This document shows, piece after piece, positions 7,361-63,687 of a stretch of DNA of 64,000 bases. The notes beneath the pieces are model-generated. The model did not search any database and was not told where the DNA came from. It saw nothing but the letters and a program-made list of their open reading frames with translations. Position numbers and translations under genes: made by a program. The stretch lies in the NCBI GenBank assembly GCA_964617825.1, contig CAZTWL010000004.1:71546-135545 (forward strand), written 5' to 3'. Numbering within the stretch: the stretch's first letter is position 1; each line of letters opens with the position of its first letter. Source of the DNA: an uncultured Verrucomicrobiota bacterium. Lineage in GTDB: Bacteria; Verrucomicrobiota; Kiritimatiellia; JAAZAB01.

Positions 7361-7380
7361 CTACCCTTTATATGAATTGA

Positions 7381-7570
7381 TATTTTTATTAGCTTTCCAC
7401 AGGATACTCAGAACTTAGACTGTGGACCGTGGGCTGCAGGAAAACGGGCAATAATCAGCCAGATGCAAAGAACCATAGTTCCGGTTTTGTGTATCTGCAT
7501 TTTGCCTGTTCGAACCTACGGACTACAGTCTTCAGCCCTCGGCGGCCCTATGGGACGCCAATGCTATGTT
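7381..7570. repeat. intergenic repeat element copy A (~190 nt) shared with 51067..51270 and partly with 44750..45135
   Basis: Three blocks are shared with copy B: CCACAGGATrCTC...CTGTGGrCCGT..AGGAAAAC, then AGTTCCGGTTTT, then ...ACAGTCTNCAG.CC..GG.G.CCCTNTGGGACGCCARTG. Confidence 0.6.
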
Positions 7571-7681
7571 TTTATCGTTTTGAAACATGCGCGCCGGATA
7601 TTCCGCATTCGGTGCAACGCGCCAAACCCACTCCCTTGATCGATACTAGAGGCAACTTTGCCTGCAACGGAATTCAAATTG

Positions 7682-8440
7682 CTATTTTACGGCTTTCAAG
7701 ATCATGGGGCCCGCAGGATCAGCCACGGACTGCTCGCCAGGCTGAAGCACAATGAACTTGTCCTCAGGCCAATCGCCATTCAACAGGCATTGGAGCAGTC
7801 CGGGATCGCCCGGTATTTCATCATACTCCCACTTCAACTCTTCGGCACAACGCCGCGTGAAGGCCCGATCCTGTTCCCGGTTGGGAAAGCCCCAGTCGAT
7901 GTAAGCAGCGCGATGGTAATTCCGATACCACTCCGCCTGGACGTCCATCAGGTACTGGGCATTATCCTCGCCATATTGTTCAGTATAATTCGCCAGCTCC
8001 TGGGCATAGCGCGCCTTGCCCGGCATCAACGAAGTTTCGATCCAGCCGCTGCTGTACCAGTATGTTCCGGGATGCTTGTCAAAATATTCCTGGTAGCGCT
8101 GTCGCGCTCCAAGGAGCAGGGTCAGACAATCATGCGCGCGCGGAATGACCACCGGGCAATGCCTGGCCTTCAAGCCCGCGGTGCCATTGCTGCATAAAGC
8201 ATACCCCAGCAAAATGGCGTCGTACGGTCTATCTGCGGCCACCTGAGGACTCGGCCCGCGGCCCCGCGGATGAACAGTCAGGGGCGTGTCAATTTCACGC
8301 TGGACAGACTGGCGCAACAATTCGGGCTGGTCATGCAAACCTTGCGGCAGCATAACCACATCCACCTGATGTGGCGAACGGGCCGCGCAGGCAAATATTT
8401 CACGCCGGAGCACATTACAGCCGATCACTTTAAAATGCAT
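7682..8440 (-). CDS. conserved hypothetical protein, DUF1638-like
   Basis: 252 aa. The size and sequence character resemble the DUF1638 family (recall only). It is translationally coupled to the upstream ATP-grasp gene across a 5-nt gap. Confidence 0.4.
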   Translation of the reverse strand: MHFKVIGCNVLRREIFACAARSPHQVDVVMLPQGLHDQPELLRQSVQREIDTPLTVHPRGRGPSPQVAADRPYDAILLGYALCSNGTAGLKARHCPVVIPRAHDCLTLLLGARQRYQEYFDKHPGTYWYSSGWIETSLMPGKARYAQELANYTEQYGEDNAQYLMDVQAEWYRNYHRAAYIDWGFPNREQDRAFTRRCAEELKWEYDEIPGDPGLLQCLLNGDWPEDKFIVLQPGEQSVADPAGPMILKAVK

Positions 8441-43437: not shown

Positions 43438-44673
43438 CTAACGAAAACGGAACATTGTGCCCGACTGAATAAATACTTCGTAAGCGCCCATGTCCACCGT
43501 CCCATGCAAAATACGCGCATGTCCATCCAAGTCAACCGCATTTGTCATCCAGTCTTGATTCAAGCCCGAATTATAACACGGTGAATACCGATTGAAGCGA
43601 TAGTCGCCGGTCGCAAAACTTGCAAACCCGGGATTATCGGTCTTGTTGCCGGTGCGCATGGAATTAAAATATGTGCCCGAGGGCATTGAACATGAATACA
43701 TGCAGACGTCCCTGGTCGCCGACCATCCGCCCAAATTACCAGGGGCATTGTTATAAACAATGCAATTAACGACCGCATTGGTTGACGATTTGCCGAAAGC
43801 GACGCCGCCGCTGGCCCAGGGGCTGTAATTACTCACGATGGTACAGTTAATAACCAGAGTATTGGTGCTGATGATTGCTATGCCGCCACCATGAACTGAT
43901 CCACCATCCACCCTGTTATATCTAATCAGGCAATTTTCAATCGTAGCTACAGCATCGCCGGTCGAATATCCGACACGAATGCCGCCTCCATGCGAAGTCA
44001 GCGCTTGATTGTTTTCGATTATGCAGTTCTTGATTAAGGCATAGGTTAGGCTATCGCTTATATTTATACCTCCCCCCATGCCAGTCGTGCTTATATTGTT
44101 CCTGATCGCACAGTTCGCAACAATGCAGGTTCCCAGATAGGTTTTCTTGGGCCACGTATCCACCAAGATCGCAATGCCCCCTCCGATTTGGGCCTTGCAA
44201 TCGGTAATAAGACAATTAGTGACCGTTCCACCTGACATTACTATTCCCCCGCCATTAAGCGAATAGCCATTTGTGATCGTCAGGCCATCAAGAACACTGT
44301 CGTTGTGCTTCAGATAGAAGTTATACAAGGCATTCCCGTTAAAAATCGCGGCGCCCCTTCCGTTGAGACTCCGGATAACGACGTCATTCGTAATGGCAAT
44401 GACATTATTCGTGAGTCCATAAACCCCATTAGTCACCCAGACGATTTTGGGCGTATCGCCATCGTTCATGGCGACCTTCACCACATCGATGACGCTGGTC
44501 CCAGCCGTCGCCCAGTTGGTGTAGGGAGGTTGCGCCCCGGCATTGCTCGGAACCAGATAATGGGTGGCCGCATCGGCATTCGCCACCCCGAAAATGATCG
44601 CCACCATCGCTGCCGCACGCACCACATATTTAACGTTCAATCGTCTGGTTGTCGTTTTATATTGCTGAATCAT
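43438..44673 (-). CDS. secreted right-handed parallel beta-helix repeat protein (pectate-lyase fold / CASH-type)
   Basis: A signal peptide is followed by many NxGGGI/NCxI-type beta-helix rungs (GGGIAI, NCIIENN, NCLIRYN, NCTIVSN). Confidence 0.6.
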   Translation of the reverse strand: MIQQYKTTTRRLNVKYVVRAAAMVAIIFGVANADAATHYLVPSNAGAQPPYTNWATAGTSVIDVVKVAMNDGDTPKIVWVTNGVYGLTNNVIAITNDVVIRSLNGRGAAIFNGNALYNFYLKHNDSVLDGLTITNGYSLNGGGIVMSGGTVTNCLITDCKAQIGGGIAILVDTWPKKTYLGTCIVANCAIRNNISTTGMGGGINISDSLTYALIKNCIIENNQALTSHGGGIRVGYSTGDAVATIENCLIRYNRVDGGSVHGGGIAIISTNTLVINCTIVSNYSPWASGGVAFGKSSTNAVVNCIVYNNAPGNLGGWSATRDVCMYSCSMPSGTYFNSMRTGNKTDNPGFASFATGDYRFNRYSPCYNSGLNQDWMTNAVDLDGHARILHGTVDMGAYEVFIQSGTMFRFR

Positions 44674-44841
44674 TTTTACCTTTTCTGGGTTTAGAGTGAA
44701 ACACCCTAAACATATAGTGGTTATGACGATGTCGGATGCGGATACAAGTTTAAGCCGCCATAATGAAAATAAATTGCCAACCCCTGTCATCCCACAAGGT
44801 CAGACAAATGAGTTAAGACACGGTTAATATCGAAGGAAAAC

Positions 44842-45102
44842 GTGCCTTCCTCGAAAAATCAGTTCCGGTTTTTTGGATCAACATATATGCAGCACACCTC
44901 CTTCCAACACATGGCTGTCCCACAGGAATTAGCCGAATCCTGGCAAACAAGCCGGTTCCGGGGTGCCGCAGATGCGCCCAGGAATACAGATGCGCCAGGT
45001 AACGCAGGATCAAATGGACCAACAGGCCCATCCACTTCTGCCAGCGCACAGCATTGGCGTTATGCCCCAGAAAATCGGCCAGTTGCAAGGTTTGTTTAAT
45101 CT
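44842..45102 (+). other. small + strand ORF (85 aa) inside the repeat region, ending immediately before a perfect 8-bp hairpin and T-rich tract
   Basis: ORF 44842..45099. The hairpin is CACTGGCG-tcccacagggg-CGCCAGTG at 45104..45130, followed by TTCCTGTTTT. Coding status is unproven. Confidence 0.2.
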
Positions 45103-45138
45103 CCACTGGCGTCCCACAGGGGCGCCAGTGTTCCTGTT

Positions 45139-47397
45139 TTAATACTTCTCAGCGAGGGTAATTTCCAAAACTTTGATGTCGCCCGGGCCAACATCAATTG
45201 AGAATGAATTTTTGTTTTTGTCCCAGGCCATATCCGTGCCTTCCCGCAGTTCCTGCACCATGATCGGGGTCAGCGACCGCATGTCGACCGTAACCTTGGC
45301 GGTTTGGGCAACATCCGCCTTTTCCGGCGTGCGCGTGAATTTAGTTACGCCCTTGTTGTTGATCAGATACACCCACCAGCCATCCGACACTTTGTTCAGC
45401 CCATATTCGATATCGCCCTTTACCTCAACCGGCAGGACGTCTTTCACAATCTGCCGCATCAGAATTTGAACAAGAGGATGTTCCCTGGATTTCATGGCCT
45501 TGATGTAAGTATCGTCGTTGTTATCGCAAAAGCTTTTGCGCGGAACCATATAATCGACGGCGGTCAAAACCACCCGCCCCCGGCCATACGCATGCGCGCT
45601 TGCAAGAATCCCGCCCTTGCTGTCACGCCACAGCGGTTCGGCGCCTTTTAGTTCAAGCATTTCATAATCGTATGGCTCGGGCAGCGTTATGGCATCGCTT
45701 CCGCCAACAACATTGACTTTTCCTTCTGTCGCGCACATTTTCCCCGTCCGCCTGACCCCGATAAAATCATCCGGCAGATTGTCGTTAACCTGCCGGGTAT
45801 TGAGGACCAGCGTTCCGCCTTTCTTTACATATTCCTTCAATCGTTTCGCCAGCGCCTGGTCGATATTGAATCCACCCAGCATGATCGCCACCTTGTAATT
45901 CATCAGCGTTTTCAAGGCCACGGGCCCGCTAGGCGGACGGGGCGTAACCACGTCATAGATGTCCCCATATGGGCTGTTTGCCAGGCAGCCTTCCTGGCCT
46001 TGCTTTAAATTCTGCGCCATCGGCACCAAGGTATACATAAAGGCATCGATCATACTGTCCGGACGCTCCATGGGAAAATATGACCAGGGACGTCCGCCAA
46101 ATTGCGGATAACCCTGATTAAATGGAATCATGATCGCCACCGGCGCGTAGCTTGAGCCGCGGTCGGGAAACCATTGGGTGAATGCGTACCATTCCTTCAT
46201 CGCCTCGCCGTACGGGGAAAGCTCGACGTCGCCGCGCGCATCCTGGTTTTTGAATTTCCAATAGGTATATGGCCAGCCTTCGTGTTGGACAATACTGGCC
46301 CCGGCTAAATACGCCAAATACATATTTCGTCGATTAAGCGAAATCGACGGCCCGCAGGTCGGGCCACGGACATGTTCGTCTCCGATACCAAAGGCAGTGG
46401 TATTGGTTGTCAAACAATACGGAAATGCATTGTCATCCCATTTGCCATCCTCGGTAAAGCCGTTATAACAGACGGCAATATACCATTCCCACGGTTTGCC
46501 ATATTGCCGTGCGGCCCCGCGCGCAAACGACATGGCAACTTGGTACCGGTAGGGACCGGTGCTCGACGTTTCCAGAATCACCATCCCGGCGCCCCATTCC
46601 AGCGGGTAATGATCCCAGCACCAGCCACTGTGCAGGAAGATCATTTTTGCCGGATCGTTAAAATAGTAGCGCTGCGCGGCTTTGAAACAGGCATATGATC
46701 CGGCCAACGCCTGATCGCGGCCTTTTCTCGCGTTCACAAGAATGTTGGTTGCCTGCGTTATCATTGCTTCCGAATAATTTTGCGCTCGCAGCCGCTTGAC
46801 ATATTCAAGCACGTTCGTCTGGTGAAGAGCTCCAATATAATCGCTGTCATATTCATCGCCGGCCGCAAATCCCAGAAAATTGGGATGCTCTTTTTTCCAT
46901 TTTTTATATTCTTTATCGTCTACCTTGAAATCATCCATGCACCTGAAATGGGGACGGCTGCCGCCTCCGCCGAGAATAAACGGCACCTTGGGATCGAATT
47001 CCGCTTCATTCAATCGGGCGGCGCTGATCGCAAGACTATTATTCGTGTCCGGTACCAACAGATTCTTGCGCGAATACCAGCGCGCCGCCTCACGCAGCAT
47101 CGGTTCGCTTGAATGTACCATTCTGCCCTGCGAGGCTAGCGCTTTCTTCGTAGGCAACGGCTTGGGATCGGATTTGTTCCGCCAATCCCCGGGAAGCAGA
47201 TTCCAGAACCTGCGTCCCATTATTTGCTGCGGAATTTGATCCGCAGTCGAGTCATAATCCTGCCGGGCGACAATACGGGCGGCATCACTTGAACCGTTCG
47301 TTCCCTCCACGCCGGCGGCGGCCCCAAATGCCGTTAGACAGAGCAGACAGACCATCGGCAGCGTTACGCGGCATATTTTACGCATATTGATTTTCAT
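45139..47397 (-). CDS. putative glycoside hydrolase of an unassigned family, paralog 1 of 3; central domain resembles a beta-galactosidase-trimerisation/ThuA-like fold
   Basis: ~750 aa with a signal peptide. Conserved blocks shared with 51277..53553 and 61441..63687 include IVARQDYD, EHPNFLGF.AG.E.DSD, FLHSGWCWDHYPLEWG, ARQY.K.WSWYIAVCYNG, FPYCLTTN, GPTCG.S.SL.RR.MYL.YL.GAS, SYFPMERPDSMIDAF.YTLVP, CLANSPYGDIYDV and YKVA..LGGF.ID..LAKRL.EYVKKGGTLV.N.RQ. Confidence 0.55.
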   Translation of the reverse strand: MKINMRKICRVTLPMVCLLCLTAFGAAAGVEGTNGSSDAARIVARQDYDSTADQIPQQIMGRRFWNLLPGDWRNKSDPKPLPTKKALASQGRMVHSSEPMLREAARWYSRKNLLVPDTNNSLAISAARLNEAEFDPKVPFILGGGGSRPHFRCMDDFKVDDKEYKKWKKEHPNFLGFAAGDEYDSDYIGALHQTNVLEYVKRLRAQNYSEAMITQATNILVNARKGRDQALAGSYACFKAAQRYYFNDPAKMIFLHSGWCWDHYPLEWGAGMVILETSSTGPYRYQVAMSFARGAARQYGKPWEWYIAVCYNGFTEDGKWDDNAFPYCLTTNTTAFGIGDEHVRGPTCGPSISLNRRNMYLAYLAGASIVQHEGWPYTYWKFKNQDARGDVELSPYGEAMKEWYAFTQWFPDRGSSYAPVAIMIPFNQGYPQFGGRPWSYFPMERPDSMIDAFMYTLVPMAQNLKQGQEGCLANSPYGDIYDVVTPRPPSGPVALKTLMNYKVAIMLGGFNIDQALAKRLKEYVKKGGTLVLNTRQVNDNLPDDFIGVRRTGKMCATEGKVNVVGGSDAITLPEPYDYEMLELKGAEPLWRDSKGGILASAHAYGRGRVVLTAVDYMVPRKSFCDNNDDTYIKAMKSREHPLVQILMRQIVKDVLPVEVKGDIEYGLNKVSDGWWVYLINNKGVTKFTRTPEKADVAQTAKVTVDMRSLTPIMVQELREGTDMAWDKNKNSFSIDVGPGDIKVLEITLAEKY

Positions 47398-47415
47398 ACT
47401 TATCACTTTCTTGTT

Positions 47416-51066: not shown

Positions 51067-51270
51067 GTTTTTCCTTTATCATCCCACAGGATGCTCTGGC
51101 CGAGGGCTGTGGGCCGTAGACCGTAGGAAAACACCAAGAAAAGAGATGATTATGAAAAGCCCTTCAAAATCATCAGTTCCGGTTTTTCCAACTTGGATTT
51201 GTTCGATTCCGACTTACAGCCTTCGGCCTACAGTCTACAGTCCGAGGTGCCCCTGTGGGACGCCAGTGTT
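51067..51270. repeat. intergenic repeat element copy B (~200 nt), homologous to 7381..7570
   Basis: It shows the same three-block structure. A CCCACAGG...(17 nt)...CTGTGGG palindrome lies ~45 nt upstream of the 47416..51066 start codon. Confidence 0.6.
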
Positions 51271-51276
51271 GCTGAG

Positions 51277-53553
51277 TCATTCTTTAATTTCCACTACTTT
51301 GATGTCACCCGGACCGACAGTGAGGGACAAGGACTTCCCGACACGATCCCAGCTAACATCTTGCTCTTCCCTCAATTCGCGAACTTGTTTCGCGGCCAAA
51401 TCCCGCAGGCGAATGGTTACTTGGGCAGACGCGGCCGGATCCAGCTTCTCGGCCGTGCGCGTAAACTTGGTTACGCCCTTGTTATTGATCAGATAGACCC
51501 ACCAACCGCCTTCGACCCGGTTAACTCCATACTCAATCTCCCCCACGACTTCAACTGGCAGCGCTTCCCGTACAATCTGGCGCATAAGCAATTGGATCAG
51601 CGGCAGATTGCGGGCTTTCATGGCTCTGATGAACGTATCGTCGTTGTTATCGCAAATACTCTTGCGCGGCACCATGTAATCGGCGGTGGTCAGGACGACC
51701 CGTCCGCGGCCATAATCGTTCACGCTGGCCAGGACACCACCCTGTCCGTCCAACCACAAAGGCTGCGCGCCACGCAAATCAACCTGCTCATAATCGTAGG
51801 GCTCGGTGAGCGTCACGGACGACTTTCCATCCGCCGTCCGGATCTCGCCTTCCGTCCCGCAGACTTTGCCCGACCGCTGTGCGCCGATGAACTCCGCCGG
51901 TAGATTGGCATTAACCTGCCTTATATTAATGACCAGCGTTCCGCCTTTTTTAACATATTCCCTGAGGCGCCTGGCCAGCGCCTTGTCAATATCGAAGCCC
52001 CCGAGCATGACCGCCACTTTGTAATTCATAAGCGTTTTCAACGCCACAGGTCCGCTTGGCGGATTCGGCAGGATGACATCATAGATGTCTCCGTACGGAC
52101 TATTGGCAAGGCATCCTTCCTGTCCCTGCTTCAGATATTGCATCAGTGGCACCAGGGTATACGTGAACGCGTCGATCATGCTATCCGGCCGCTCCATCGG
52201 GAAATAGGACCAGGGACGTCCGCCCCATTGCGGGGCGCCCTGGTTGAACGGAATCATCAACGCTACCGGCGTATAGGCCACACCACGTGCCGGGTGCCGG
52301 CGCGCGAACGCATAGCTGTCCTTAATCGCTGCGCCATAAGGGGACAGCTCCCATTCTTCCGCGTGCTTTTCCTTGCTCCCCTTGACAAACTGGCAATAGG
52401 CATAAGGCCAGGTCTCATTCTCGACGAAACTTGCCCCGCTCAAGTAAGCCAGATACATATCCCGCCGGTTTAGTGAAACCGACATGCCGCAGGTCGGGCC
52501 ACGGACATGGCCGCTGGCGGCAATCGGAGATTCATTGGTGGTTAGGCAGTAAGGAAAGGCATTGTCGTCCCATTTTCCATCCTCGGTGAAACCGTTATAA
52601 CAGACCGCAATATACCAGCTCCAGAATTTGTGGTATTGGCGCGCCGCTCCACGGGAAAAAAACATGCCCAACTGATGACGGTATGACCCCGTACCGCTGG
52701 TTTCCAAAGTAATGCCGCCGGCCCCCCACTCCATGGGATAATGGTCCCAAGTCCAGGCCGAGTGCAAAAAGAGCAGCTTATCGCAATCGTTAAAAAAGTA
52801 CCCGCGCCAGGCATCATGGCATTTCTTCAACCCCGCCACCGCTTCCCAACGCCCTTTTTGACTCGCCTCTATCACTTGGCTGGCGGACTGGACGCAGGCC
52901 TCAATATCCTTCTCGGCAAAACCTTTGCGCCTTAAATCATTCCGCAACCAATCGGCACCCTGGTACCCTTCGAAATCAAGTCCGGCTTTCTTGCTTTTCG
53001 CCAATGCGCCAACAAAGTCGCTGTCGAATTCGTCGCCGGCCATGAACCCGACAAAATTCGGGTATTGTTCTTTCCAATGCTTATAGGTGGAATAATTTGG
53101 GCGAAATGGCAGCATGTACGCCAGGGGTGGACGACCTCCAGCACTTAACATAAAAGGCACGTTCGTCTCCGGCTTGATGCACGAACCTTTCAACTTGAGA
53201 TTGGTCATATCGACGACCAGAGGATTATTGGTTGTGCTCAGGGACGCGCCATATCGCACTGCCGATTCGAACACCATCGGCTCAGAGCTGATATATTTTG
53301 CCATTTTGTATTCATTCGCCCAGTTGGTCCATATTTTAACACTCATCAGATTCCAAAAATCGCGTCCCGTAAAGACCGGCAAGGTCCAGTCCGGGGAAAT
53401 GTCAAAATCCGTCCGGGCCACAATTCGATTATCGTTCGTTCGGCATATTCCTTCGTCAACCTTGCAAGGATTGAACGCACACCCCCCGACCAGGATCCAT
53501 ATCGCTGCCGGCAACAAAATACTGCAGACTATTCCACGCAGTTTATTTGACAT
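51277..53553 (-). CDS. putative glycoside hydrolase of an unassigned family, paralog 2 of 3 (lipoprotein-type signal LVGGC)
   Basis: 758 aa, colinear with paralog 1 (about 55-60% identity over the conserved core). Confidence 0.55.
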   Translation of the reverse strand: MSNKLRGIVCSILLPAAIWILVGGCAFNPCKVDEGICRTNDNRIVARTDFDISPDWTLPVFTGRDFWNLMSVKIWTNWANEYKMAKYISSEPMVFESAVRYGASLSTTNNPLVVDMTNLKLKGSCIKPETNVPFMLSAGGRPPLAYMLPFRPNYSTYKHWKEQYPNFVGFMAGDEFDSDFVGALAKSKKAGLDFEGYQGADWLRNDLRRKGFAEKDIEACVQSASQVIEASQKGRWEAVAGLKKCHDAWRGYFFNDCDKLLFLHSAWTWDHYPMEWGAGGITLETSGTGSYRHQLGMFFSRGAARQYHKFWSWYIAVCYNGFTEDGKWDDNAFPYCLTTNESPIAASGHVRGPTCGMSVSLNRRDMYLAYLSGASFVENETWPYAYCQFVKGSKEKHAEEWELSPYGAAIKDSYAFARRHPARGVAYTPVALMIPFNQGAPQWGGRPWSYFPMERPDSMIDAFTYTLVPLMQYLKQGQEGCLANSPYGDIYDVILPNPPSGPVALKTLMNYKVAVMLGGFDIDKALARRLREYVKKGGTLVINIRQVNANLPAEFIGAQRSGKVCGTEGEIRTADGKSSVTLTEPYDYEQVDLRGAQPLWLDGQGGVLASVNDYGRGRVVLTTADYMVPRKSICDNNDDTFIRAMKARNLPLIQLLMRQIVREALPVEVVGEIEYGVNRVEGGWWVYLINNKGVTKFTRTAEKLDPAASAQVTIRLRDLAAKQVRELREEQDVSWDRVGKSLSLTVGPGDIKVVEIKE

Positions 53554-61440: not shown

Positions 61441-63687
61441 TTATTTATCCCGAACGGTAATCTTCACGACCTTGATATCTCCGGGACCAACGTCAATGAA
61501 AAACGATTTCCCATCCCGATCCCAGGCTATATCCTCTTCCGCCCGCAACTCCCGTACGCCGCCTACCGCCAGCTTGCGCATATTCACGGCAACTCGTGCA
61601 GTCGCAGCGGAATTCAAGCGCTCTGGCGTCAGCACGAATTTACTGACACCCTTGTTGTTGATCAAATAGACCCACCAGCCGTCAGCTACTTTGTTCAATC
61701 CGTATTCGATATCCCCTTTAACTTCAACCGGCAGCGCTTCCTGCACGATTTGCTGCATAAGCAATTGGACCAACGGATGCTGGCGCGCTTTCATGGCTCT
61801 AATGTATGCATCGATGTTTATATCGCAAAAGCTCTTGCGCGGCAGCATAAAATCCACTCCCGTCAAAACGACCCGCCCTGAACCATATTGGTTCACGCTC
61901 GCCAATATGCCACCCTTGCCATCAAGCCAAAGCGGTTTTGCCCCATTCAACTCTATTTGCTCGTAATCATAAGGTTCGCTTAATACGGCCGAATGGCAAC
62001 CACCTGCAACCTTGATCGCGCCATCCGTTCCACACACTATCCCTGACCGCTTGGCCCCGACAAAATCCTCCGGCAGCGTATCGCCGAACTGCCTGATGTT
62101 GACGACGAGCGTTCCTCCTTTTTTCACATACTTCATCAGCCGTTTTGCCAACGGCTTGTCGATCTTGAATCCGCCCAGCAGAATGGCCACCTTGTAATTC
62201 ATTAAAACATCCAACGCCACCACGCCATGCGGCGGATTCGGCAGGATCACATCGTAAATATCGCCATACGGGCTGTTTGCCAGGCAACCTTCCAGACCTT
62301 CCGACAATTTGTCTGAAAATGGGACCAGGGTATAGGTGAAGGCGTCAATCATGGAATCCGGCCGCTCCATTGGGAAATAAGACCAGGGGCTACCGCCCCA
62401 TTGCGCATATCCCTGGTTAAACGGAATCAGGAGCGCCACCGGCGCGTAGCTTACACCGCGATCGGGATGACGTTGCGCGAACGCATATAGTTCCTTCAGA
62501 TCCTCGCCGAACGGCGAAAGTTCGTAACCGTCTTTCTTGTTATGGTTTTTGAATTGCCAATAGGCATAGGGATAGGTTTCGGGTTGCACCATGCTTGCCC
62601 CGGCCAGGTATCCCAAATAGAAATCCCGACGGTGCAATGAAGGCGACATGCCGCAGGTCGGACCGTAGACATCGCCATTCCCGACAAACGTGGGGGCATC
62701 ATTGGTAGTCAGAAAATAAGGGAACACATTCGACCGGTATTTTCCATTTTCCTCATTACCATTATAGCATACGGCTATATACCAACTCCAAAACTTGAGA
62801 TATTGCCGGGCTGCCCCGCGGGCAAAAAACATCGAAACCTGGTGCCGGTAGGGCCCGGTATTGGTAGTTTCCATGATTGCGCCCGCTGAGCCCCATTCCA
62901 GAGGATAGTGGTCCCAGCACCACCCGCCCCGCAAAAAAAGCATTTTTTCAGGATCGTCAAAGCAATATTTTCTGGCCGCCAGATAACATTCACGTAGGGC
63001 GGCCAGGGCATGGTCGCGATCCTTGGATGCCGGCGCAAAAATGTCCCGCATGCGGTTGACGACGTCATCCGACATCCCCCATTTGCGGAGAAGTTTTACG
63101 CTTTCATTGACGTCCCGCCTCAGGTAGCCCATAAAATCGCTATCCCATTCCGCGCCGGCCATGAATCCCAGGAAATTAGGATGCTCCTTTTTCCATTTCC
63201 GATAGCCTTTCTTCTCAACCTGAAAGGATTGCTGACAGGCCAAAAAGGGGCGGCTGCTTAGAACAAATGGCACCCCCATGTCGGGATCCATGTTCTGCAA
63301 TTTTGCATCGTTCATCAGAAGGACGCCGTCGTTTGTGCTCAGTAGTCCGTCACGGACGTGATAACAAGGCACCGCGTCATGGACCATGGCCTCGTTCGAA
63401 TAGGCATAACGTTCCTGCGGATTGTAGCGCAATTCCCGGGGACGATTGTCCGATTTCAAGTATAGATATCTGCCCAGCACATTCCAGAATCTCCGCCCCA
63501 TGATTTCCGGCGGCGCCAGTTTGGCGCTCACATCGTAATCCTGCCTTGCCACAATTCTCTCTGGTTTCGCGCAATCGTCCGCCGGCGCGGCGTCCAGGAT
63601 TAAAGCTGTCGGCACCTGTAAAGCCACGATCAGCATCACGGCTAATTTTATGTCCAAACAATGCACGCCGTCTTTCCTTTCTTTCAA
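61441..63687 (-). CDS. putative glycoside hydrolase of an unassigned family, paralog 3 of 3
   Basis: 748 aa with an N-terminal hydrophobic anchor. It shares the same conserved blocks as paralogs 1 and 2. Confidence 0.55.
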   Translation of the reverse strand: MKERKDGVHCLDIKLAVMLIVALQVPTALILDAAPADDCAKPERIVARQDYDVSAKLAPPEIMGRRFWNVLGRYLYLKSDNRPRELRYNPQERYAYSNEAMVHDAVPCYHVRDGLLSTNDGVLLMNDAKLQNMDPDMGVPFVLSSRPFLACQQSFQVEKKGYRKWKKEHPNFLGFMAGAEWDSDFMGYLRRDVNESVKLLRKWGMSDDVVNRMRDIFAPASKDRDHALAALRECYLAARKYCFDDPEKMLFLRGGWCWDHYPLEWGSAGAIMETTNTGPYRHQVSMFFARGAARQYLKFWSWYIAVCYNGNEENGKYRSNVFPYFLTTNDAPTFVGNGDVYGPTCGMSPSLHRRDFYLGYLAGASMVQPETYPYAYWQFKNHNKKDGYELSPFGEDLKELYAFAQRHPDRGVSYAPVALLIPFNQGYAQWGGSPWSYFPMERPDSMIDAFTYTLVPFSDKLSEGLEGCLANSPYGDIYDVILPNPPHGVVALDVLMNYKVAILLGGFKIDKPLAKRLMKYVKKGGTLVVNIRQFGDTLPEDFVGAKRSGIVCGTDGAIKVAGGCHSAVLSEPYDYEQIELNGAKPLWLDGKGGILASVNQYGSGRVVLTGVDFMLPRKSFCDINIDAYIRAMKARQHPLVQLLMQQIVQEALPVEVKGDIEYGLNKVADGWWVYLINNKGVSKFVLTPERLNSAATARVAVNMRKLAVGGVRELRAEEDIAWDRDGKSFFIDVGPGDIKVVKITVRDK

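Follow-up and report, generated by a model that had tools for sequence, protein, structure and literature searches.

Intergenic repeats in a Kiritimatiellia genome as probable relics of miniature inverted-repeat elements and of an IS4-family insertion sequence

Three repeated intergenic elements, A, B and C, were analysed in a 64,000-nucleotide stretch of DNA (hereafter the window) from an uncultured Verrucomicrobiota bacterium of the Kiritimatiellia (assembly GCA_964617825.1, contig CAZTWL010000004.1, positions 71,546 to 135,545 of the forward strand). Our data indicate, with a probability of about 0.9, that A and B are old copies of a transposable element of the miniature inverted-repeat type (MITE) and that C is a deletion derivative of an autonomous insertion sequence (IS) of family IS4 belonging to their ancestry. 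The element family is ordinary selfish DNA and not a dedicated regulatory signal. A preliminary description of this DNA had considered a MITE-like element that supplies regulatory signals; the MITE part of that proposal was borne out by sharp ends, terminal inverted repeats (TIRs), 9-bp duplications, spread over many genomes and a matching IS, and the regulatory part was not.

The repetition within the window is real and its extent lies far above chance. Three ordered blocks had been recognized previously. The 12-mer of block 2, AGTTCCGGTTTT, was found exactly three times (positions 7477, 44861 and 51175), for an expectation of about 0.008 for any 12-mer in 2 x 64 kb, and its observed count was reached by none of the shuffled sequences when up to two mismatches were allowed. 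Exact copies of block 3, GGGACGCCARTG, were present at 7552 and 51257, with one in each orientation at 45104/45119, and those of block 1, CCACAGGATRCTC, were confined to positions 7397 and 51084. Local blastn and an inverted-repeat search revealed that blocks 1 and 3 are mutually complementary, a feature that had escaped the preliminary description: each of A and B is a single long imperfect inverted repeat. The location of the elements was given correctly there, their true limits (Table 1) being a few bases narrower. The reading strand was not, since the minus strand is the natural orientation of the elements. On this strand, both folded into one long imperfect hairpin of about 180 nt (-64.8 kcal/mol, z=-3.0 for A; -79.7 kcal/mol, z=-4.6 for B).

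A profile hidden Markov model (HMM) of the family, built from 16 foreign copies only and leaving out those of the window, matched A and B over nearly its whole length (Table 1). Copies A and B shared only 59.5% identity, and this divergence suggests separate old insertions belonging to different subfamilies. Over its entire length, copy A showed 82.5% identity with the copy of JAQUMN01 (locus L069), whose flanks are different.

The distribution of the family in other genomes, one per species, was evaluated with a pattern common to all three window copies (AAAACCGGAACT, 15-45 nt, GTTTTCCT; minus strand). At least 103 loci were recovered, about a third of them in metagenome-assembled genomes (MAGs) of Kiritimatiellia/Verrucomicrobiota, and about 35 family copies were counted in these MAGs among the matches listed. 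The other matches were scattered in coding sequences of unrelated phyla, did not include the remaining blocks and were considered as background. The family was dispersed and multi-copy, 13 or more loci belonging to MAG JBDRJR01 and 10 or more to CAZYXU01; near-identical JBDRJR01 copies with different flanks imply recent movement. Several copies were located at contig ends (L035, L046, L068, L072, L077 and L078), as expected of a repeat that breaks assemblies. Family copies were intergenic, and no open reading frame (ORF) of at least 120 aa was interrupted by any of them.

Similarity among family members started at CACTGGCGTCCCATA(A)GGGACGCC and stopped at GAGCATCCTGTGGGATGCTAATG, the outer flanks being unrelated. 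The 16 complete copies measured 184-225 bp (177-225 bp with those of the window), and lengths of 184, 185, 193, 195, 196 and 225 bp differed by values that are not multiples of 3. Their ends were sharp within unrelated flanks and their termini fixed, with CACTGGCGTCCCA at the 5' end and TGGGATGCTAATG at the 3' end. These termini form imperfect TIRs, as CACTGGCGTCCCA was identical at 10 of 13 positions to CATTAGCATCCCA, the reverse complement of the 3' end. A perfect 9/9 target site duplication flanked 8 of the 14 testable copies, for a chance probability of about 4e-6 per match, and the other six displayed 8, 8, 7, 7, 6 and 4 matching positions out of 9. The duplicated 9-mers were all different (for example GATGTAATT, GAACTGCTT, AGCCGATTT and ATTCCGTTT). 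Fixed ends, inverted termini and duplications of fixed length and variable sequence designate a transposable element; with about 200 bp and no gene, as no conserved ORF with both start and stop was found, this element is a MITE. Visual inspection of the arms (for example 7515-7540 and 51216-51243 in the window) also showed tandem CTGTAG/CTACAG-like units of about 7 nt, which resemble the terminal-repeat core CTRTGGGA. A count of CTGTAG-like arm repeats was uninformative, the degenerate motif being nearly self-complementary.

Copy C had been described as a rearranged third copy of the repeat. This view could not be maintained, since the MITE profile was matched by only two short pieces of C (E=6e-4 and 0.04). 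By blastn, positions 27-137 of C aligned with positions 1028-1138 of the 1455-bp IS from metagenome locus L118 (81%), and positions 149-347 with positions 1254-1453 (76%). This two-block alignment suggests that C is an IS which lost about 1 kb internally and a further stretch of about 115 bp. A 97-aa minus-strand ORF (44813-45106; translation starting with VEIKQTLQLADFLGHNANAVRWQKWMGLLVHLILRYLAHLYSWAH) lies between the left hairpin and the core motif of C. It gave no match in a Pfam search, and a large protein search retrieved fragments annotated as IS4 transposase or PF01609. In NCBIfam, the C fragment corresponded to positions 296-331, the last 36, of the 332 positions of NF033592 (IS4 family transposase; E=1.6e-4). 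Homologues carry PF01609, and in the longer ones the family signature Y-(2)-R-(3)-E-(6)-K was recognized (LYRCRWDIEVFFKEIKQ), of which only the portion from EIKQ onward survives in C. The pseudogene was matched by tblastn with protein P0018 in two frames (E=6e-22 and 1e-3); equivalents of residues 95-138 and, in the other frame, of residues 170-186 of a 186-aa fragment are retained, followed by a stop. The left end of C was identical to that of B at 22 of 23 positions. Its hairpin, previously announced as perfect, is imperfect, with 11 of 12 pairs and one G-T pair.

Protein searches for the parent IS gave fragments only, shorter than about 1.75 times the query length, and full-length genes were taken from DNA loci. 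A metagenome scan using an alignment of transposase fragments provided 80 loci, 16 of which contained full-length ISs of 1448-1467 bp, with inverted termini around a single transposase gene. The encoded transposases were 403-416 aa long, except for that of L110 (310 aa), and the IS termini fitted CAYTNNCNTCCCAYA, most often in the form CACTGTCATCCCATAG. Scores against NF033592 amounted to 254.3 bits for L118 and 241.2 bits for L116 (cut-off 115), and the IS4 signature was read in P0001, P0009 and P0011 as LYRCRW(D/Q)IEVFFK(E/Q)IKQ. Identity levels of 28-33% with the nearest annotated plasmid-borne IS4 transposases suggest that the parent ISs form a distant, unnamed IS4 subgroup. Perfect 9-bp duplications flanked the elements of L116, L117 and L118. 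In all 16 full-length ISs, CTGTGGGACAGCC or a variant such as CTATGGGACAGCC directly followed the transposase stop, within the last 150 nt or so of the elements (L110-L181); it may be an internal transposase-binding site. In two loci, L111 (17-25/1483-1491, TATTTATTA/TAATAAATA) and L127 (139-147/1596-1604, AAAAAAAAT/ATTTTTTTT), the 9-nt IS flanks were exact reverse complements and not direct repeats, probably an assembly artefact around a repeat in these short metagenome contigs.

The L118 IS, which was retrieved via its protein and independently of the DNA pattern, connects the two kinds of elements. Its last 170 nt align with the right part of C, including CTGTGGGACAGCC after the stop, AAAAACCGGAACTGA and the right terminus. 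Compared with the MITE, its terminal 15-19 nt were 88-93% identical and a core block of 23-25 nt (IS positions 1362-1386, at the same place relative to the right end) was 84-87% identical. The block 2 motif is found about 85 nt from the right end of this IS, and the shared core block identifies it as belonging to the right subterminal region of the IS. The other ISs displayed weaker forms of block 2 (AAATCGGAACTGAC and AAAATCGAAAATGA).

Several observations weigh against this interpretation. The conservation of AAAACCGGAACT and GTTTTCCT among MITE copies is partly by construction, as the retrieval pattern itself contained both. Similarity between MITE and IS is confined to about 16-19 nt at each end and to the core block (about 23 nt), and nothing in the IS corresponds to the left arm of the MITE. 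No full-length IS was present in the window, and tblastn over the 103 genome loci of the MITE scan found no transposase, so that the existence of a parent in these genomes is deduced from metagenome relatives. Perfect duplications were found in only 3 of the 17 testable full-length IS loci, many of which are metagenome contigs of short length that may be collapsed assemblies. In the window, even a decayed duplication (6/9) is seen for A only, and none was found for B after several offsets were tried. The outer termini of both copies are mutated, A ending in ...GGAAAGCTAATA and B in ...GGGATGATAAAG; together with the decayed or absent duplications, these sequences suggest that A and B are probably no longer mobile.

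By analogy with IS10 and IS50, a DDE transposase that a full-length IS of the same cell provides in trans would bind both terminal repeats of the MITE, excise it by cut-and-paste and insert it at a 9-bp staggered cut, whose repair would generate the duplication. The long hairpin, as well as the upstream palindrome and the conservative substitutions in one frame that had been pointed out previously, would follow from inverted-repeat ends conserved at the DNA level, and the elements would be found upstream of genes because insertions survive in spacers. If adjacent genes are affected at all, this would be a secondary effect, A having split a formerly overlapping gene pair and B filling a co-directional spacer.

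Table 1. Coordinates of the elements in the window and of their parts, named according to the favoured interpretation
Feature	Position	Strand	Basis or remark
MITE copy A, 177 bp	7387..7563	-	HMM positions 1-194 of 195, E=1.2e-36
Copy A left TIR and hairpin (CATTGGCGTCCCATAGGGCCGCC)	7541..7563	-	aligns with family 5' end CACTGGCGTCCCATA(A)GGGACGCC
Copy A right TIR, degenerate (GAGTATCCTGTGGAAAGCTAATA)	7387..7409	-	aligns with GAGCATCCTGTGGGATGCTAATG; several positions mutated
Copy A core motif AAAACCGGAACT (block 2)	7477..7488	-	exact; also right subterminal in the L118 full-length IS
Candidate decayed duplication, left (AAAACATAG)	7564..7572	-	6/9 with right copy; suggestive only
Candidate decayed duplication, right (AAAATATCA)	7378..7386	-	6/9 with left copy; suggestive only
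MITE copy B, 195 bp	51074..51268	-	HMM positions 1-193 of 195, E=4.9e-37
Copy B core motif AAAACCGGAACT	51175..51186	-	exact match
Copy C, internally deleted IS4-family IS, 349 bp	44782..45130	-	blastn against the 1455-bp L118 IS
Transposase C-terminal pseudogene in C	44932..45103	-	EIKQTLQLADFLGHNANAVRWQ...SWAH, deletion and frameshift, PGRICGTPEPACLPGFG, stop
Copy C terminal 27-nt palindrome CACTGGCGTCCC-ACA-GGGGCGCCAGTG, MITE-type left-end hairpin	45104..45130	-	12-nt arms, 92% complementary
Copy C right TIR (CCTTGTGGGATGACAGGG)	44782..44799	-	matches right end CTATGGGATGACAGTG of full-length ISs
Copy C core motif AAAACCGGAACT, IS right subterminal region	44861..44872	-	exact; aligned with AAAAACCGGAACTGA of the L118 IS
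CTGTGGGACAGCC, near-copy of terminal-repeat core, directly after transposase stop in C	44917..44929		sequence

The insertion site of copy A could be compared with related loci. This copy lies between genes for a DUF1638 and a DUF6941 protein, and close homologues of the latter were labelled as Kiritimatiellae or Verrucomicrobiota MAGs. In three relatives (L188 from MAG CAYYBV01, L189 and L190) the site is empty and the two genes overlap by 4 nt. In the window they are separated by 327 nt, 177 nt of which are MITE A. The window locus is also present in an independent assembly (Logan SRR8925806, L185), which terminates within copy A. Another 118 nt of non-MITE DNA (7564-7681), extending from the DUF1638 stop to MITE A and including a GC-rich inverted repeat (GCGCGTTGCACCG...CCGGCGCGC), are likewise missing from the empty-site relatives. 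At the same junction, two other MAGs, L186 (1353-1686) and L187 (1511-1844), have a different insertion of about 250 nt, with inverted ends (GTGTGTCGAATTCGGTT ... AACCGAATTCGATCACAC) and no match to the MITE profile. Possibly, another MITE without relation to the first has entered the same spacer.

Copies B and C are located in a minus-strand carbohydrate-degradation cluster with genes for glycoside hydrolase GH30, two DUF4838/GH67N-like proteins, a GH42-like protein and a beta-helix protein. Copy B fills nearly all of the 210-bp spacer extending from a 758-aa gene to a co-directional 1216-aa DUF4838/esterase gene. The cluster comprises three mutually well-conserved minus-strand paralogues of 748-758 aa with no Pfam match (45139-47406, 51277-53553 and 61441-63687), among which those of 758 and 755 aa share 56% protein identity. 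Elements B and C each start 8 nt past the stop of these two paralogues (51269-51279 and 45131-45141), and their 8-nt flanks agree at five positions. This common offset may be due to a preference for certain targets or to a rearrangement whose junction lies within an element.

As stated in the preliminary description, all three copies are situated between minus-strand genes. The distance of 30-45 nt claimed between palindrome and ATG did not apply to C, whose downstream gene has its likely start codon at 44672, about 110 nt from the element end, preceding what reads as a signal-peptide-like sequence. A role in expression can be conceived in two ways. One is co-option: the core, AAAACCGGAACT with GTTTTCCT 15-45 nt further on, inherited from the IS right end, would serve as an outward promoter or protein-binding site and the hairpin as a signal for RNA processing or stability, A and B driving or insulating the downstream gene. 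The GGAAC of the core resembles the -35 box of extracytoplasmic function (ECF) type promoters. We regard co-option as unlikely; if true, the family would represent a portable regulatory cassette in Kiritimatiellia. Consensus scans, which may not suit this phylum, found no sigma-70-like promoter and no intrinsic terminator inside A or B. Two readings of the core motif by eye were also discarded: a sigma-54 promoter had the wrong spacing, and in an ECF promoter the -35/-10 spacing in C, about 19 nt, was too long.

The other is a conserved cis-regulatory unit maintained upstream of certain genes for their control, consisting of an operator with promoter or of a structured 5' leader RNA, as the preliminary description had proposed. 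It might be argued from the hairpins of A and B, which beat those of shuffled sequences (see the z values above), from the position of both copies just upstream of start codons, in the orientation of the downstream gene, and from the 12-nt core identical in the three window copies. However, a hairpin arises automatically from an inverted-repeat architecture, and perfect 9-bp flank duplications combined with fixed termini denote insertion rather than vertical conservation. The flanking genes are moreover unrelated between copies, and in relatives the site of copy A is free of the element. Orientation is mixed elsewhere: among about 26 foreign copies, the nearest downstream ORF shared the strand of the element in 9 cases and was on the opposite one in 17, a noisy count based on crude calls (stop-to-stop, at least 120 aa). 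A gathering-level scan of the whole window against Rfam 15 yielded no match, and a tRNA scan found none; the negative promoter and terminator scans of A and B given above likewise speak against such a unit. Taken together, these results make an operator or leader RNA very unlikely.

Gene duplication would offer an explanation of another kind, in which the repeats are paralogous untranslated regions (UTRs) carried along with the tandem paralogues of the glycoside-hydrolase cluster. The identical 8-nt offset of B and C after the stops of two paralogous genes, and the partial agreement of the flanks, would be in line with this. However, copy A has the unrelated context DUF1638/DUF6941, and no element follows the stop of the third paralogue (748 aa). 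Neither B nor C is a diverged copy of the other, since B is an entire MITE and C is what remains of an IS, transposase sequence included, and their left ends agree at 22 of 23 positions, to be compared with 56% identity at the protein level for the genes. The preliminary description had itself named the case that would overturn it, namely that the window copies are the only ones and are such UTRs; instead, copies were found in many genomes beside unrelated genes. Owing to the unrelated contexts, the paralogue without element and the difference between B and C, gene duplication does not account for the family, and we judge it highly improbable.

A derivation from IS200/IS605, as a palindrome-associated transposable element, or from repetitive extragenic palindromes (REP) associated with RAYT-type transposases, both with single-strand transposition, appears extremely improbable. 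A small hairpin is present at each end (GGCGTCCC-ATA-GGGACGCC and GCATCC-TGTG-GGATGC) and short GTAG-containing repeats were seen by eye in the arms. IS200/IS605 and REP elements are not known to have target site duplications or TIRs, whereas the present family has inverted termini and 9-bp duplications of variable sequence, and the associated remnant is that of a DDE transposase of family IS4, not of a Y1/HUH enzyme.

The chance that block 3 encodes a short plus-strand peptide, as the preliminary description had hinted, is negligible: although a 17-codon frame is open in 12 of the 13 distinct copies of the family and has a conserved ...PYGTPV end, it lacks a start codon and in every copy extends to the limit of the element and beyond it into flanking DNA that is unrelated, the element lengths vary by non-multiples of 3, the two long plus-strand ORFs that cover A and B (7429-7755 and 51193-51903) enter real genes in antisense, and the stretch is a TIR whose DNA-level conservation, as a putative transposase-binding end, explains the substitution pattern.

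MITEs and ISs of family IS4 are already well known, and the current understanding of both is left unchallenged by our findings; no description of the present family was found. A literature search on miniature inverted elements in Kiritimatiell* returned no paper combining both, and the main text of a MITE census over 183,232 genomes does not include Kiritimatiellia, Verrucomicrobia or IS4 (PMC11602168). What the window and its relatives provide is a clean link from IS to MITE in a distant, unnamed IS4 subgroup of a poorly studied phylum, in which three stages can be seen, namely the complete IS, its deleted form (copy C) and the MITE. For annotation purposes, both the elements and the remnant of the IS should be masked, or labelled as relics of mobile elements, and promoters, leaders or small ORFs should not be read into them. 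Since MAG assemblies are broken by the family, it bears on the quality of Kiritimatiellia/Verrucomicrobiota genomes. Copies A, between formerly overlapping genes, and B, between co-directional genes, are natural cases for studying the effects of MITEs on operon expression.

The family resembles known bacterial MITEs, such as Correia of Neisseria, RUP of Streptococcus pneumoniae, ERIC and MITEAba12 of Acinetobacter, in being non-coding, within their size range of about 100-400 bp, multi-copy and mostly intergenic, with TIRs, flank duplications and a long hairpin fold. The duplication made by Correia elements is TA, and RUP is associated with an IS of the IS630 type. In comparison, the present element is longer (184-225 bp) and has a conserved 12-nt core from the right end of its parent IS. 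No sequence relation with Correia, RUP, ERIC or MITEAba12 was seen or is expected, no direct comparison having been made, and the host phylum is here Kiritimatiellia/Verrucomicrobiota. About 90% of MITEs were intergenic in the above census (PMC11602168), and 9-bp duplications are discussed in the paper describing MITEAba12 of Acinetobacter (PMC6382973).

The parent ISs share with family IS4 (IS10, IS50 and IS231 type; NF033592, PF01609) scores of 241-254 bits, a size of about 1.45 kb and a single transposase gene. They also share the signature, read as Y-RC-R-WDI-E-VFFKEI-K in P0001, termini starting with CA and 9-bp duplications, which IS10 and IS50 make as well. They differ from the family by the extra internal end motif CTGTGGGACAGCC after the transposase stop. 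Transposase-less IS4-family derivatives mobilised in trans exist in the Bacillus cereus group, in the form of the IS231-derived MIC231 and of IS231-type MITEs. These differ from the elements reported here in host, termini and internal content, MIC231 having passenger genes whereas the present element is devoid of any.

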